From: Pachysolen tannophilus NRRL Y-2460
Lineage: Eukaryota
Assembly (NCBI GenBank): GCA_001661245.1
Contig: KV454013.1
Location: 838,502-902,501, forward strand
Direction: 5' to 3'
Length of the DNA stretch: 64,000 nucleotides
The position numbers and the translations under genes were made by a program. Below, piece by piece: positions 3-59,132 of the stretch (position 1 is the stretch's first letter; every line of letters starts with the position of its first letter). The notes beneath the pieces were generated by a model. The model had not been told where the DNA came from. It searched no databases and worked only from the letters and a program-made list of their open reading frames with translations.

Positions 3-1892
3 GTGAGCGAAACAAAGAGAGTTTTACCACTTTTACAGAAACTTTCATCTACTTCACCAAACGATAGATCTATGGCTTTAAGTACCATAACTTTATTATG
101 CGAGGATCCTAATTTGAGAAGAATTTTCTTGAAGGAAAAATTGGTTAAAATTGTGCTTGAGCAGTGTATCAATGATAACAACGATGAGATAGTTGTTGAA
201 AGTTTTGGGTTATTAAGAAATTTGGTTATTGATGAAGGAGTATCATTGATCAAACATTTGCTAAGATCGAATTTATGGTTTTTAATTGAGCACAATATTA
301 ATACTAAATGTAAGAATTCATTTCATTATTTGTTTGGTAATAATGATAACGATAGTGGTAACAACAATAGTGGTAATAACAAGCCAGTTACTGTCAAGAC
401 AGATGAGATAAACCAGTTGTTTGATTTTACAGAAACTTTAATCAGCTTAGTTCTTAGTATATTAACTTGTTCAGATGATGAGATTTTTGTTCAATATTAT
501 CAGAAGTTGAATGAAGGTGAAATATTGAATTTTATTGTTGATTTAATTAATTTAAATCTTAATTCGAACAGCTTAAAGTTTTCTAAAAAATTATTTCAAG
601 CTTTGTTGGAATTCATTTATCAATTATCTAACCAATCTTCTGATTTTGTATTGAAAATAGTACCATTGATATCATTGACCAAGCTTTTGCAATTTGATGA
701 AAATTTTACAATTTTATCAAGGTTATCTCACATTTATATTCAAGGAATCAAATTTCATTATACGGAATTAACAGATGAATCTATTACTAATAGAGATGAA
801 TTCATATTGGCAACTTTAAGATCCATTACATCAATAATTTCTACAATAAATATTGAAGAATCGTTAAAGCTTTTAAACAAGCCAATTGATAATACAGAAC
901 CTAATAATGCTACAAAGGAAGAAGAAAATAATAAAGAACTTTCTACAATAAATGATGAGTTATTATCCATTGATATATCATTGGATATAATAGCCACTTT
1001 GATTGAATTTAATGGCTCAGAAAATTATGAAGAGTCTATTAGTTTAAATCAAGATTTGATGCAATTTTATATATCTTCACTAATCCCAATGATAATCCAA
1101 TTATTTACAAATTATAATGAATACTTTACTAATAAGGTTTTAATTGTTTTGAACAATCTTTCATGGTTATTTTCGCAACTGGATGAAAAACCTGTTGAAT
1201 GGTTTGAAAGTCTGCAAAAATTATATGAAATAGTGATTACTAAATTCTTATTATTAGAGGATTATAAAAATGATTTGGCTCTTGTAACTGATTACTTGAA
1301 TCTGTTATTTATCTTAGGTAAAACATTACATCATACATTACCATTCAATTTGAATAAAGAACAGTTGGATAAAATTTTGAAACTATCAAATAGTGTTATT
1401 GATATTTCTACAGATGAATCACAAGCAGAAGCAGAGGAAGAGGAACCACAATTAATCAAACAATTTTTCATAGCTTTAATTAGTTTCTTGGCTATTATAG
1501 CGAAAGTTCCATCACAATTAGAAATCACCTCCATTATATCAGATTATATTTTCCAATTAATCAAATTTTCTATGGAATCCCTAACAATAGATCAGCAGCA
1601 TCAAAATAATAAATTGTTTAAACACTTGAAACAAAACTATATTTTTGAACTTATAATAACTGAAGCTATTAATTCTATATTTGACATTTATGATGACAAG
1701 ACAAATGATTATGATTATCAACTTTTTGTTGCTGGAGGTTTAAATAATACTTTGAAAATTTTTGAAAAAGAATTCAAGTCCATTTATAAGAAAATTGATA
1801 AAAATAAAGATGAAATATTAAAATCCAAGAGTGAAGAAACTCTGATCAACTTGGGACGGTTTATTCAATACAAAGAAGATGAAGCAAGTTAA
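3..1892 (+). CDS. SYO1: Synportin-1, ARM/HEAT adaptor for Rpl5/Rpl11; 5' end lies outside the window
   Basis: LPLLQKLSS..PNDRSMAL..LLCED..R..FLKEKLV..DEIVVESFGLLRNL near the start and NLGRFIQYK at the end. The ORF is open to the window edge. Confidence 0.8.
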   Translation: MSETKRVLPLLQKLSSTSPNDRSMALSTITLLCEDPNLRRIFLKEKLVKIVLEQCINDNNDEIVVESFGLLRNLVIDEGVSLIKHLLRSNLWFLIEHNINTKCKNSFHYLFGNNDNDSGNNNSGNNKPVTVKTDEINQLFDFTETLISLVLSILTCSDDEIFVQYYQKLNEGEILNFIVDLINLNLNSNSLKFSKKLFQALLEFIYQLSNQSSDFVLKIVPLISLTKLLQFDENFTILSRLSHIYIQGIKFHYTELTDESITNRDEFILATLRSITSIISTINIEESLKLLNKPIDNTEPNNATKEEENNKELSTINDELLSIDISLDIIATLIEFNGSENYEESISLNQDLMQFYISSLIPMIIQLFTNYNEYFTNKVLIVLNNLSWLFSQLDEKPVEWFESLQKLYEIVITKFLLLEDYKNDLALVTDYLNLLFILGKTLHHTLPFNLNKEQLDKILKLSNSVIDISTDESQAEAEEEEPQLIKQFFIALISFLAIIAKVPSQLEITSIISDYIFQLIKFSMESLTIDQQHQNNKLFKHLKQNYIFELIITEAINSIFDIYDDKTNDYDYQLFVAGGLNNTLKIFEKEFKSIYKKIDKNKDEILKSKSEETLINLGRFIQYKEDEAS

Positions 1893-2120
1893 AAACTTTA
1901 CCTATATAGAAGTTCTATAGCACAATACTATTATAATTTGTCAATTTTTTCAAAAAGAACAACAACAATAATAAAATAAATTAATATGAATAAATGTAAA
2001 GAAAATGAACTGAAAAGAAAAGAATTTTAATACAATTTTGGCAAAACAATTTTTTTAAAAAAAAAAAAAAAGAAAAAGTAAGAAATTTTTGGGAACAAGA
2101 GCCAAGCTAAATCAGAAAGG

Positions 2121-2684
2121 TCAACTAGCTGGTGCACCATATTTTTGCGCCTGTTCTTTAACTTTCTTTTCATAAGTAGCTCTATCTTTACCGTAAGCTC
2201 TCCAAGCAGGTTCTTGAGCTGGAGAATCGGGATTAGGTGAATCTAATAACTCTTGAATCCCAATAACAATTTGTTTCAATGTAATAGCTGGACGCCAATC
2301 TTGTTCCTCGTTTAATATCGAAAGGCATATTGTTCCAGAAGGATAAACATTTGGATGATAAAAATTTTGAGGAAATTTAACTTTTGGTGGTTTTGATGGA
2401 TAATCATCTGGAAAATTAATCGTTACCGGATATACTCCTCCTTCCCATAAAGTATGAGATTTCCCCGGTATACCAGCTGTCCAGTTTTGAAGATCAAGAG
2501 CTCCTCCAACGGTCTTGTTTGGTTTGGCATAAAACCCAAACGGATGATCTTTTCTCCATCGTTTACTATTTAAATTAAAAAAAAAAAAACATTGGTTTAG
2601 TTAGTTGAAAACATTCTTAATAACTACTAAAATAATAATTAACACTTACCGTTCCTCTTGAAGACGAGTTTTGCAAAGACTTGA
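2121..2684 (-). CDS. UBC9: SUMO-conjugating E2; exons 2684-2650 and 2565-2121; its ATG is displaced to 3293-3295(+) by the inversion
   Basis: Manual translation gives [27 protein letters not shown]...[28 protein letters not shown]...[10 protein letters not shown]. Absent from the ORF track. Confidence 0.95.
2566..2649 (-). other. UBC9: Spliceosomal intron of UBC9 (84 nt)
   Basis: GTAAGT donor at 2649, AACTAAC branch near 2600 and TAG acceptor ending at 2566. Splicing gives in-frame EER-KRW. Confidence 0.9.
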
Positions 2685-3069
2685 CACTATTATTATTACA
2701 ATCTTGTAAATTCTCATTATTTTCCCTATTAATATCATTAACAAAAGATTCAAATTCTTTTGATAATTCTGGATTAGTTGACGATAATTGTCCCATAATT
2801 TTCAGAAACTCATCTTCAAATTGCTTATCCAATCCAGATCCAGATACACCCAAATCATCCAGTATATCACTTCTCAGTTCTTTCCCTGCATCTTGTTCAA
2901 ATTTTTCTTCTTCTTCTTCTTCTTCTTTATCTTTATTCGATTGTATAACGCTACTACCAGGAGGTTTACTCAAGATATCATCCTGTAACTCGTCTAAAAA
3001 ATCATCTAAATCATCCAAATCATCCTCAACCTCAATATCAGCATTCTTATCCACCAGTCTTTCAGACAT
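2685..3069 (-). CDS. PEX19: Pex19 N-terminal part, inverted relative to its C-terminal part
   Basis: MSERL...DDLDDLDDFLDELQDDILSKPPG is the acidic Pex3-binding N-terminus. It joins position 3296 in frame once 2685-3295 is flipped. Confidence 0.85.
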
Positions 3070-3295
3070 ATCCTTGTTTCCTTCTATCAAGTTCAAGGGT
3101 TTATTTAATTGTATTCTTCTTCTTCTTTTTAATTGTAATAGTTCAGCAACTTCATTTATATAAAAATGGTTTATTTAAAAAAAAAAAGAAAAAAAATAAA
3201 TTCAAAAATTTAAGTAAAACGGAAGATTTAACTTCAAATATTATTTGAATACAATCAAGGTCAAGATAAGTCGAGTCATTTAGATAGCTGATATG

Positions 3296-3941
3296 AAAGG
3301 CCATCTAATTTTCAAGATATTATGCTGGAAGCAATGAATAGGTTAAAGAAATCTGGAGAATCGGTGGATAAACAGTTAAAAGATGAACAATCATCATCTA
3401 ATGATTTTATTACTCAATTACTTTCACAATTGGGAGATTTGAATTTAGATCTGGATCAGAATGAAATAGATGGTGCAGCTGCTCTTGAAGGTGGTCAAGG
3501 AGATGATCAATTGATGAATAATCTTTTAAATGATCTTATATCACAATTGATTTCTAAAAAAATCTTGTATGAACCTTTAAAAGAACTTTCATTAAAATAT
3601 CCAATATATTTAAAAGAAAAAAAATTAATAATGATCAAGAAAATAAATATACAAAACAATATGAAATTGTAATGAAAATTGTTAATAAATTTGATGAAAA
3701 AGATTATGAAGATTTAAAAGATTTCCCCTTTATTAATAAACATTTAGAAGAATTACAAGAATTAGGAATGCCACCAAAAGAATTAGTTGGTGAAAATGAT
3801 GGATTAAACGAAATTTTTGGAGGAAATTTTAATATCAATAATAATGATACTAATAATAGTTTTGAAGAAGGAATTGGTAAAGATGATGAAATTCCTGAAG
3901 ATGTTCAAAAACAATTGGAAGAAAATTGCAAACAAGTATAA
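3296..3941 (+). CDS. PEX19: Pex19 C-terminal part, with an apparent 1-nt frameshift in the A-run at 3617-3624
   Basis: NFQDIM.EAMNRLKKSG, LISKKILYEPLKEL, LEELQELGMPPKEL and a C-terminal CaaX box CKQV. Confidence 0.9.
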
Positions 3942-4132
3942 ACCCCATAAAAATTTGTAAAATTTTATTTATCATTTAAAATCATTTAAAATTTTAATTT
4001 AAATATTTTTAAAAAAGAAACAAAGAAAAGAAAGAAAAAAAAACTCTTGATATTTTTTAATTCTCCCCACCATTTTCTATATCTTCAATATTCAGCTTAA
4101 ATATAAAATCTAAACATATACAAAAGTCTTTT

Positions 4133-5467
4133 TCAAGTAACAATATCTCCAGCAATATTGAATTTTGCATCATCACCTTCACCCAATTTTGTAGTACCTT
4201 TTTCCTTATATGTACTTACTGCTGGGATATCTGCTTTAATCTTAGTGACCAAAGTATCAAAAGCTCTTGGATCTAATTTAATTAAAGTATGTAATGGAAT
4301 TTTCATCCATGGACTTTCTTCTTGTGGAACATTCATAAAATATGCATATAAACATCTTAGCACTGCTTGATGAGTAATTAATAAGATATTTTCTTGATTT
4401 TCCAAATTCATTATAATTGGTTCTAATCTAATAATAACATCTCTATATGATTCTCCACCTCTATAACGATATTCAAATTTATTTTCATCTCTCATTTTAA
4501 AATCTTCAGGGTATAATTTTTGAATTTCTTCATAAGTAAGACCATCACATACTCCAGCATCTAATTCATCTAATGCTTTCCAAGTTTTTTTAGGATAATC
4601 CAAATATTGAGCAGTTTGTTGAGTTCTTTTCAAAGTTGAAGTCCAAACTTCTAAATTTTCATTATTTGGAATATAACGTGAAACTAATTCAGGTAAATTT
4701 TTTGCATATTTAAAACCTCTTTCTGATAAATCACTATCACCTCCAATTTTACCTTCTAAATTATAACTTGATTCACCATGTCTTGATAACCATATTGTTC
4801 TTGGTTTAATATGTAAATTCATTATGAAATAAACAATTCTACTTTCTAAATAAGTTTGAATTTTATTAATTATAATTTGAGCATTAACATTGATCAATTT
4901 AATAAAAGTTAAATCTGAATCAGTAGACATATTTAAAGGTTCATAAACTTGTTCATATTTTGTAATTCTTTTTAAAAAATCTTTAATAGCAAAATCTGGA
5001 TTAACACCTTGATAATCTGGTGAAGTTGTCTTTACATCTAAAATATTATTCATTATAATTTCATTATTATCACAATAACTTTCTAAAAACATTGGTTCAA
5101 TTTTATTTAATCTTAATAATTCCAATATTTTTTTCCTTCTTTCCCTAGTAGTATTTGAAGCATCTAATACTCCAACTGTACCATTTTTTTCATTAAACCA
5201 TGTAAGCATATCTTTTAATGCCATTTCTAAAGCTCGATTTCTAGTATCTAATCCTTCTTCATTATTTTCATCAAAAAATTCAGCAGTAGGTTGTTGTTTT
5301 TGACGCCTCCTATAAGATCCAACATTAAAACTCTTGGAACTTATAGAAAGCCAATTCAAATACCTAACAATCTTTTGACTCATTAATGACTTGCCTCTAG
5401 CTGGAAGTCCAACCATAACAACACATATCCTAACATTATCAACATGAGAAACTGTATACACCGGCAT
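4133..5467 (-). CDS. FBP26: Fructose-2,6-bisphosphatase / 6-phosphofructo-2-kinase family
   Basis: VMVGLPARGKS P-loop, WLSRHGES histidine-phosphatase motif, RYRGGESY. Confidence 0.92.
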   Translation of the reverse strand: MPVYTVSHVDNVRICVVMVGLPARGKSLMSQKIVRYLNWLSISSKSFNVGSYRRRQKQQPTAEFFDENNEEGLDTRNRALEMALKDMLTWFNEKNGTVGVLDASNTTRERRKKILELLRLNKIEPMFLESYCDNNEIIMNNILDVKTTSPDYQGVNPDFAIKDFLKRITKYEQVYEPLNMSTDSDLTFIKLINVNAQIIINKIQTYLESRIVYFIMNLHIKPRTIWLSRHGESSYNLEGKIGGDSDLSERGFKYAKNLPELVSRYIPNNENLEVWTSTLKRTQQTAQYLDYPKKTWKALDELDAGVCDGLTYEEIQKLYPEDFKMRDENKFEYRYRGGESYRDVIIRLEPIIMNLENQENILLITHQAVLRCLYAYFMNVPQEESPWMKIPLHTLIKLDPRAFDTLVTKIKADIPAVSTYKEKGTTKLGEGDDAKFNIAGDIVT

Positions 5468-14191: not shown

Positions 14192-14309
14192 NNNNNNNNN
14201 NNNNNNNNNNNNNNNNNNNNNNNNNNNNNNNNNNNNNNNNNNNNNNNNNNNNNNNNNNNNNNNNNNNNNNNNNNNNNNNNNNNNNNNNNNNNNNNNNNNN
14301 NNNNNNNNN

Positions 14310-23407: not shown

Positions 23408-23479
23408 TCCGATGTAGTGTAACGGCTAGCACGGTCCGCTTTCACCGGGCAAACCCGGGTTCGACTCCCGGCATCGGAA
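23408..23479 (+). tRNA. tRNA-Glu(TTC), intronless
   Basis: TCCGATG/CATCGGA acceptor stem, CTTTCAC anticodon loop, GGTTCGACTCC T-arm and a T-run terminator downstream. Confidence 0.97.
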
Positions 23480-29351: not shown

Positions 29352-29915
29352 NNNNNNNNNNNNNNNNNNNNNNNNNNNNNNNNNNNNNNNNNNNNNNNNN
29401 NNNNNNNNNNNNNNNNNNNNNNNNNNNNNNNNNNNNNNNNNNNNNNNNNNNNNNNNNNNNNNNNNNNNNNNNNNNNNNNNNNNNNNNNNNNNNNNNNNNN
29501 NNNNNNNNNNNNNNNNNNNNNNNNNNNNNNNNNNNNNNNNNNNNNNNNNNNNNNNNNNNNNNNNNNNNNNNNNNNNNNNNNNNNNNNNNNNNNNNNNNNN
29601 NNNNNNNNNNNNNNNNNNNNNNNNNNNNNNNNNNNNNNNNNNNNNNNNNNNNNNNNNNNNNNNNNNNNNNNNNNNNNNNNNNNNNNNNNNNNNNNNNNNN
29701 NNNNNNNNNNNNNNNNNNNNNNNNNNNNNNNNNNNNNNNNNNNNNNNNNNNNNNNNNNNNNNNNNNNNNNNNNNNNNNNNNNNNNNNNNNNNNNNNNNNN
29801 NNNNNNNNNNNNNNNNNNNNNNNNNNNNNNNNNNNNNNNNNNNNNNNNNNNNNNNNNNNNNNNNNNNNNNNNNNNNNNNNNNNNNNNNNNNNNNNNNNNN
29901 NNNNNNNNNNNNNNN
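29352..29915. other. Assembly gap (Ns)
   Basis: N run between poly-A and poly-T tracts. Confidence 1.
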
Positions 29916-35660: not shown

Positions 35661-35865
35661 AATCAAAAAGTATATTTCAGGAGGTATTTGCCACGGCGGA
35701 TTAACGTTAATTGTCAAGTTATATTCGTTGCCATTTAAAGAATATAAAATATTTTTTACTTGTCACCTCCGAGACAAAATTTTTTATACCCGGATAGGAA
35801 GTTTGAGATTCGTGTGTCTCTTAAGTGAGATGATGAACTTGAATGTCGATAGAAGGGTAACATTC
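35661..35865 (+). ncRNA. SNR34: H/ACA snoRNA snR34
   Basis: Hairpin 1 with TGCCAC..GCCA pocket, AAAGAATA H-box region, hairpin 2 GGATAGGAAG..ATGTCGA and ACA at 35860-35862. Matches recalled yeast snR34. Confidence 0.8.
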
Positions 35866-58320: not shown

Positions 58321-58888
58321 TCTCAAAGAGGACTTCAACTTCAATTAGAATTATCCCCCAAGTTAAGAAATAAATCAATAAATATATCTATATTTATATA
58401 TATAATATATATAAATATATAGATATATAGATATAGATATAGATAATAGAAACAGAAGAAAAGAAGTTTAATTAGCAACACAACAAAGCTTCCAACTTGA
58501 AATTAATTGAGCCAAATCCTCGACTAAAAAGGTAAAAACTCTTCACTAGTAAAAACTTTGGTATTTCAGCTTGGTTCATTGATTAACTTCAACTTTTTGG
58601 AAATTATAAATTCTTGAGATAACAAATTACATGCAGAAAATTGCATGAGTCTTGCAGAAAGTGAACAAAAGTAAGCAGAAGTTGAAAAATCAACAACCTC
58701 CACCACCACACACCACACACCACACACATATGGATACAAGATACAATGAACATTGATTTCCATCTATTTAGTTCACACCATTGAAACTTGCAAGATCAAT
58801 TGAAATAAATAAATTCAAACAATTCAAAATCCAAAGCTCAAAGTATACCCAGATTTCAACTGTGTCTTTATTTTTGATTTTCGCTGCT

Positions 58889-58932
58889 GGGCGGCAGAGC
58901 TGTAGGGCGGCAGAACGGCAGCTCTGCCGCCC
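58889..58932. repeat. Perfect 14-bp GC-rich inverted repeat with a third internal motif copy
   Basis: GGGCGGCAGAGCTG (58889-58902) pairs with CAGCTCTGCCGCCC (58919-58932); GGGCGGCAGA recurs at 58905-58914. Confidence 0.9.
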
Positions 58933-59132
58933 GTTTTCCTCGAGAGCGCGGAAAAAATTGCTGCCAAAATTTGTGTGGGCAAATAAACTCAGCGGCGGCA
59001 GCAGCAGCAGTTGTGACGAAGGAGGACAAGTTATAGTTAGTTATAAAGATTACTTACTACTTGAAGACTGTTTGTTGTATGGGTATAGATAGATCTAGGG
59101 GTTTTAGTGATTTTGCTTTATTGGAATTTGTT

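Follow-up and report, generated by a model that had tools for sequence, protein, structure and literature searches.

The public assembly of Pachysolen tannophilus NRRL Y-2460 contains an exact 611-bp inversion at the gene pair UBC9 and PEX19, and both public gene models at this locus, ODV96120.1 and ODV96121.1, are distorted by it. The deposited scaffold carries a second lesion as well, a run of eight A (A8) that shifts the PEX19 reading frame, and the annotation is bent around both. The inverted segment lies at positions 2685 to 3295 of the 64-kb stretch of DNA analysed here (the window). The original prediction had proposed an exact inversion at this place, and our reading of the two junctions, together with a scan of 3721 alternative boundaries, bears it out to the base.

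The inverted segment and the genes it divides

The features at the locus, in window coordinates, are as follows.

2685..3295, no strand: inverted segment, 611 bp, backwards relative to the ancestral order; ends ambiguous by 2 bp
3070..3292, no strand: UBC9/PEX19 intergenic promoter, common to both genes, 223 bp, inside the inverted segment
2121..2565, minus: UBC9 exon 2, intact, stop codon 2121-2123 included, PF00179 match
2566..2649, minus: genuine UBC9 intron, 84 nt, GTAAGT...AATAG, at the codon position seen in the relative L001
2650..2684, minus: UBC9 exon 1 without its ATG, 11 residues plus CG of a split Arg codon (TCA AGT CTT TGC ... GAA CG)
3293..3295, plus: orphaned UBC9 start codon, opening a 14-codon ORF into the Pex19 C-half
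2686..3069, minus: PEX19 codons 1-128, the N-half bearing the DDLDDLDDFLDELQDDILSKPPG motif; wrong strand compared with the remainder of PEX19
3296..3616, plus: PEX19 C-half up to the frameshift, beginning with bases 2 and 3 of codon 129; PF04614 positions 67-165 of 249
3617..3624, plus: A8 run shifting the PEX19 frame; A9 gives a 343-aa protein, A7 a stop
3625..3941, plus: PEX19 tail in the shifted frame, to CKQV and a stop; PF04614 positions 165-248 of 249
3..1892, plus: SYO1-like ORF, convergent to UBC9
4133..5467, minus: 6PF2K/FBPase ORF, 444 aa, flanking the PEX19 side

On the plus strand, the left junction, at 2684|2685, reads ...GACTTGA followed by CACTATTATT (in a longer reading, ...CAAAGACTTGA|CACTATTATT), and the right junction, at 3295|3296, reads ...GCTGATATG|AAAGGCCATC (longer, ...AGCTGATATG|AAAGGCCATC). 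Reverse-complementing 2685-3295 by script turns these into GAT ATG TCA AGT CTT TGC and AAT AAT AGT GAA AGG CCA, without gain or loss of a base, and reproduces the predicted outcome of a 160-aa Ubc9 and, once the A-run is corrected, a continuous Pex19 of about 343 aa. The boundary scan tried 61 positions around each end in all combinations (61 x 61). The full 253-codon reading was recovered from only three of the 3721 pairs, namely 2685-3295, 2686-3294 and 2687-3293, which are one event within a 2-bp CA/TG ambiguity; six more pairs satisfied a looser test, each at the cost of lost residues. The homology between the ends is the 2-bp inverted microhomology that had been described (CA at 2685-2686, TG at 3294-3295), and it extends neither inward nor outward. 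By hand calculation, the chance expectation for a microhomology of at least 2 bp is about 0.16, and its presence thus lends weak support to a microhomology-mediated inversion. The segment also contains the whole promoter common to the two genes, as had been claimed.

The identities of the two genes, assigned earlier from the letters, agree with their Pfam matches, PF00179 for UBC9 and PF04614 for PEX19 (E-values of 2e-24 and 5e-19 for the Pex19 pieces and 1e-46 for Ubc9). The UBC9 exon 2 ORF matches PF00179 (UQ_con) at E 1.1e-46 over profile positions 6-139 of 140; its identity is 100% to ODV96120.1 and 85-86% to the yeast Ubc9 proteins next in rank. On the minus strand, UBC9 exon 1 stands directly behind ...AAT AAT AGT G, the end of the Pex19 N-half, so that GTG stands in front of TCA AGT and the UBC9 ATG is found on the opposite strand, at a distance of 611 bp; the junction letters agree with the earlier description of a UBC9 that lacks its ATG and is fused to Pex19. 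Only after re-inversion is an ATG contiguous with the Ubc9 N-terminal helix (M-SSLC...), giving the protein of 160 aa that begins M-SSLCK.

The original prediction held that, as assembled, Ubc9 could start only from a near-cognate GTG at 2687. A GTG is indeed present at 2687-2685, but the UBC9 frame is open further upstream, with in-frame ATGs at 2738 and 2717 and no stop before exon 1; starts at these codons give 18 or 11 additional N-terminal residues, respectively. On a transcript from the PEX19 promoter, ten ATGs (the Pex19 ATG at 3069 and nine more, down to 2796) precede the first in-frame ATG at 2738, and scanning ribosomes would therefore not reach UBC9. Judged from this arrangement, Ubc9 would need a cryptic transcription start inside about 2740-2800.

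PEX19 is interrupted twice, its N-half lying on the minus strand, its C-half on the plus strand, and the latter carrying a -1 frameshift at A8. The N-half frame runs for 128 codons from the ATG at 3069-3067 (MSER...DCNNNS) and continues unbroken into UBC9 exon 1, base 2685 being the first base of codon 129. On the plus strand, the orphan ATG at 3293-3295 is followed out of frame by AA AGG CCA TCT AAT TTT (RPSNFQDIM..., in the middle of Pex19), which confirms that the C-half lies behind an out-of-frame ATG. Re-inverted with A8, Pex19 stops after 253 codons; with A9 it reaches 343 aa and ends in the CaaX box CKQV. The needed correction to the A-run is thus a change from A8 to A9, and the corrected length is the one expected. 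The PF04614 domain, the acidic N-terminal motif and the C-terminal CaaX box CKQV of a Pex19 are all present. In an alignment with four full-length Pex19 homologues, the minus-strand piece covers DDLDDLDD..ILSKPPG, a block at the N-terminus; the second piece opens with the conserved P-x-NFQ, and the third takes over after KYPxxL. Three separate pieces of the window thus tile full-length homologues in order, and a chance origin of the split frames is implausible.

Read as it is recorded, the locus would yield from the PEX19 promoter residues 1-128 of Pex19 with a short out-of-frame tail. This product is 150 aa long if unspliced; if it is spliced, the frame meets TAA straight after the intron, as had been noted (UBC9 exon 2 begins TAAACG). 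The UBC9 promoter would give the 14-codon ORF from the orphan ATG at 3293, which we recover as MKGHLIFKILCWKQ*, and then a Pex19 C-fragment from the ATG at 3322. That such a fragment might start there had also been suggested; the start is present, and the frameshift ends the fragment early.

Public gene models and the order in relatives

A script reproduces both deposited proteins exactly, to the last letter, and it does so only with the inverted DNA. Each contains an intron that has been fabricated at one of the two lesions.

2687..2809, minus: fabricated 'intron' of ODV96120.1, 123 nt, GT...AG, joining ATGA to TG|TCA at 2686 and creating 'MM'
3567..3616, plus: fabricated 'intron' of ODV96121.1, 50 nt, GT..AG, deleting the conserved YEPLKELSLKYPIYLKE and stepping over the frameshift

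ODV96120.1 (PACTADRAFT_75298, Ubc9) is 161 aa long with the N-terminus MMSSLCK, and is assembled from ATGA (2813-2810), TG|TCA... (2686-2650) and, after the genuine intron, exon 2. The acceptor AG used for its first junction (2688-2687) exists only because the Pex19 codons AAT AGT abut UBC9 in the inverted DNA. In the re-inverted DNA, GCTGAT stands before ATG TCA and offers no AG, so that 'MM' could not be modelled. We rejected the possibility that this intron is real; it starts at GTTTCT within Pex19 coding sequence. An 'MM' start drawn from a 4-nt exon within Pex19 coding sequence also shows how a structural break can be hidden by gene callers guided by homology.

The consecutive accession, ODV96121.1, is labelled uncharacterised. 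It is a C-half-only Pex19 of 189 aa that begins at ATG 3322 (MAEAMNRL...) and lacks the first 137 Pex19 residues as well as 17 conserved internal residues. P. tannophilus is reported to read CUG as alanine, which corresponds to NCBI table 26 (PMC4937558), and under this table the protein is rebuilt exactly from 3322-3566 and 3617-3941. Its 50-nt intron was likewise rejected as real, as it removes conserved Pex19 residues. That the window sequence itself had been edited is ruled out, since the public models can be built only from inverted DNA.

In a search of 1.84 billion representatives, which returned 181 proteins with E up to 0.001, no close Pex19 relative other than ODV96121.1 was found. 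For the Pex19 N-half we found no public model in a protein collection of 5.8 billion clusters (0 of 687 longer candidates scored, 0 of 31 near its length). When the as-assembled ORFs were looked up exactly, five of six were absent under table 11 and none matched under table 26, the neighbouring 444-aa 6PF2K/FBPase ORF being the only one matched. A literature search returned no paper naming both Pachysolen and PEX19, none among eight of the nine on Pachysolen and peroxisomes that deals with peroxins of P. tannophilus, judged by title and abstract, and nothing relevant on UBC9, PEX19 and bidirectional promoters. Whichever explanation of the inversion holds, two records of the P. tannophilus reference proteome are wrong through this stretch, and comparative work on this proteome will score PEX19 as truncated or absent in a CUG-Ala yeast. 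We suggest that P. tannophilus PEX19 should not be scored as truncated without a check of the reads.

Comparison with relatives, which the original prediction had called for, indicates which of the two orders came first. When metagenome contigs were scanned with the Ubc9 protein, 65 loci were recovered, 32 of which extend at least 2500 bp upstream of UBC9. By tblastn, PEX19 lies upstream of UBC9 in 17 of these 32 fungal loci (no Pex19 was found in the other 15), and in all 17 the entire gene is on the strand opposite to UBC9, its N-terminal end facing UBC9. The closest relative, locus L001 (86% Ubc9 identity), is one of those with the intact head-to-head order. Its PEX19 is a single 374-aa ORF (2433-3557, minus), separated from UBC9 by a spacer of 334 bp, against 223 bp in the window, and its UBC9 (ATG AGT AGT TTG ... 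AAA G|gtaagt) has the intron at the same codon as the window. An exact 30-nt stretch of UBC9 gave no match among the metagenome contigs.

The head-to-head pair is kept across Ubc9 identities of 42-86% to P. tannophilus (17 of 32 loci), and it appears from these loci to be old and stable. On the same comparison the re-inverted order is the ancestral, conserved one and the inversion is derived. The re-inverted order also matches that in S. cerevisiae, YDL063C-YDL064W-YDL065C, in which UBC9 is YDL064W and PEX19 is YDL065C. The window thus resembles the conserved fungal pair in its genes, in the SYO1-like neighbour convergent to UBC9 and in the position of the UBC9 intron, and differs from it in the reversed orientation of the promoter, of both ATGs and of 128 PEX19 codons.

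Origin of the inverted order

The explanation we prefer, at about even chances, is that the inverted order is an error in the sequence record, arising in assembly, in finishing or from a rearranged template. The ranking in the original prediction, with a misassembly ahead of a minority or heterozygous allele and a switch as speculation, agrees with our results. On the preferred explanation, the working genome would probably keep the intact order, encoding a 160-aa Ubc9 and a 343-aa Pex19, and the A8/A9 frameshift would add another consensus error within that kilobase. The locus as assembled looks non-viable. UBC9, which encodes the SUMO E2 and is essential in S. cerevisiae, lacks its ATG and its promoter and sits behind the promoter of PEX19; an N-extended Ubc9 from ATG 2738 or 2717 could relieve this difficulty, given a cryptic transcription start. 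The event would seem to be recent, judged from the clean ORFs of both Pex19 halves; as these halves and Ubc9 are free of decay, it should be either very young or not biological.

The condition of the neighbouring sequence bears on this explanation in both directions. The two lesions, the inversion and A8 in place of A9, lie about 320 bp apart in one gene, the frameshift standing 322 bp from the right junction. Pfam matches were obtained for 29 of 57 ORFs in the window, and only the family of PEX19 is split over two of them; in 41,952 bp of other long ORFs there are ten A/T runs of at least 8, none of which breaks the frame. Two neighbouring lesions among genes that are otherwise unsplit, with their runs in frame, may point to a local quality problem, although decay of a truly dead PEX19 would account for the frameshift just as well. 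The assembly is a draft, for which its description gives a contig N50 of the 10^4 bp class together with a scaffold N50 of 1.69 Mb (PMC13232491), and the window itself belongs to a gapped draft scaffold with three runs of N.

14192..14309: N run, 118 bases, the nearest to the inverted segment, at 10.9 kb
29352..29915: N run, 564 bases
29921: N run, 1 base

Inversion misjoins in draft assemblies are reportedly known from assembler comparisons such as GAGE. The window resembles them in being part of a gapped draft scaffold and in an implausible order that breaks conserved genes. Typical misjoins, however, occur at repeats or beside gaps, and the junctions here are at neither; the surrounding 10.9 kb are free of N runs, the genes on either side are intact, and nothing suggests a patched gap. 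Ordinary assembler error does not make two mutually exact junctions without flanking inverted repeats, and none are present. Moreover, a 2-bp microhomology is typical of real end joining or template switching, and the two junctions look like those of one physical molecule. A chimeric read, which had been offered alongside misassembly as the simplest cause, is a weak candidate, as it needs two mutually exact junctions 611 bp apart. Artefacts of DISCOVAR assemblies are described at yeast MAT loci (PMC6692504).

The composition of the sequencing runs gives a further hint, to which we attach little weight. Five runs, four from one sample and a fifth from another study, each contain 0.91 of 227 sampled words of the stretch, and the equal shares suggest that the same words are absent from all five. 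We modelled this deficit as 20-21 missing words, ignoring other causes; the model is uninformative if the index omits low-complexity words. Neither the junctions alone (56 of 2171 words) nor all runs of at least 9 explain the deficit (P at most 3e-4), and all A/T runs of at least 8 fit poorly (P 0.008-0.02). The junctions together with runs of at least 8 do fit (P 0.25-0.34), and all runs of at least 7 without the junctions are compatible with it (P 0.12-0.20). The modelled deficit is at most weakly in favour of junction words being absent from the runs.

Alternatively, the inversion may be a recent and real structural mutation that became fixed in the sequenced stock, through rejoined breaks or a template switch at the 2-bp inverted microhomology; we consider this possible, but lean against it. 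Microhomology-mediated inversions arise by end joining or by replicative template switching (NHEJ/MMEJ, FoSTeS/MMBIR). The window resembles such events in that both junctions have 2-bp microhomology and no inserted bases, and departs from them in that every base is kept at both junctions, which would place it at the cleaner end of such events. The exactness of both junctions and the lack of a gap nearby speak for a real mutation. So does the consensus, which would normally need many reads at each junction, and the equal word shares of the runs from two studies, which therefore probably agree on the state of the junctions. A second disabling lesion in PEX19 is what would be expected of a gene that is already dead, and the in-frame upstream ATGs, with no stop before exon 1, leave a route to Ubc9. 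That route requires a cryptic promoter within about 60-100 nt, because of the ten ATGs between the PEX19 transcript start region and 2738. Apart from the A-run, there is no decay, and the modelled word deficit is somewhat better accounted for with junction words missing from the runs, a weak point against a fixed mutation.

A pex19 null is expected to lack peroxisome biogenesis. If the mutation is fixed, the strain would be such a null, with Ubc9 made from a cryptic transcript within the former Pex19 N-half, starting at ATG 2738 or 2717. A real inversion would mean a type strain without peroxisome biogenesis and with an essential-class SUMO E2 made from a cryptic start; this would be a moderately interesting natural experiment, and the stock would be unsuited to work on peroxisomes or SUMO.

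It is also conceivable, though in our judgement unlikely, that both orders were present in the sequenced DNA, as a sub-clonal mutant or as an allele of a diploid or duplicated region, and that the assembler printed the broken path. The viability problem would then disappear, since an intact copy would keep the cells alive, and the junctions would be physically real and exact. The assembly graph would presumably branch exactly at 2685 and 3295 and force the assembler to pick one path, and a sheltered null allele could carry the A-run frameshift too. Against such a mixture, the vegetative phase of P. tannophilus is described as haploid, and a lethal or sick sub-clone would not be expected to become abundant in culture.

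That the segment is programmed to invert, as a promoter block toggling expression of UBC9 and PEX19, is very improbable. The segment does contain the whole common promoter and both start codons, and P. tannophilus inverts DNA on purpose at MAT, where the published account describes an 8-kb region flanked by 2-kb inverted repeats whose inversion is induced by nitrogen depletion (PMC6692504). The original prediction had called a switch speculative for want of long inverted repeats and of a recombinase, and we found neither. Of the 186 inverted pairs between 2300 and 3700, the 25 longest include none that pairs the two breakpoints, and the long pairs are A/T or TTC low-complexity matches of 71-84%; the ends have only CA/TG in common. 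Recombinase, integrase or transposase families were matched by none of the 57 ORFs of at least 90 aa in the 64-kb window, a weak test, as flip/flop MAT switching needs no dedicated recombinase. Furthermore, cells in the 'off' state would go without an E2 whose S. cerevisiae counterpart is essential, and PEX19 is on one strand in all 17 related loci that have it upstream of UBC9.

Flip/flop mating-type switching, as described for P. tannophilus, Ogataea polymorpha and Komagataella phaffii (PMC6692504, PMC5720833), is like the window in that inversion of a segment alters gene expression. In those accounts it proceeds by homologous recombination between kb-long inverted repeats, over a region of at least 8 kb, and both states are functional, whereas the segment in the window is 611 bp long with ends that share 2 bp, and in the state on record two genes are broken. 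That the 611-bp block is a true invertible element, flipping through some undescribed mechanism guided by microhomology in place of long inverted repeats, strikes us as scarcely credible. Equally doubtful is the corollary of one state with UBC9 and PEX19 both expressed and another with truncated Pex19 pieces and little Ubc9, the assembly having caught the 'off' state. On this comparison of sequence features, the inversion is in all likelihood not programmed.

Elsewhere in the window

Rfam and ARAGORN found no RNA genes inside 2000-4000. A G+C island at 58850-59000 reaches 56-57%, against 28.5% in the window, and immediately precedes an ORF for a short-chain dehydrogenase; across it, both strands have long open ORFs, and it has no Rfam or Pfam match. 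A borderline match to the H/ACA snoRNA snR34 lies at 35661-35865 on the plus strand (39.9 bits, against a gathering score of 39), and Rfam and ARAGORN agree on a tRNA-Glu(UUC) at 23408-23479, also on the plus strand.
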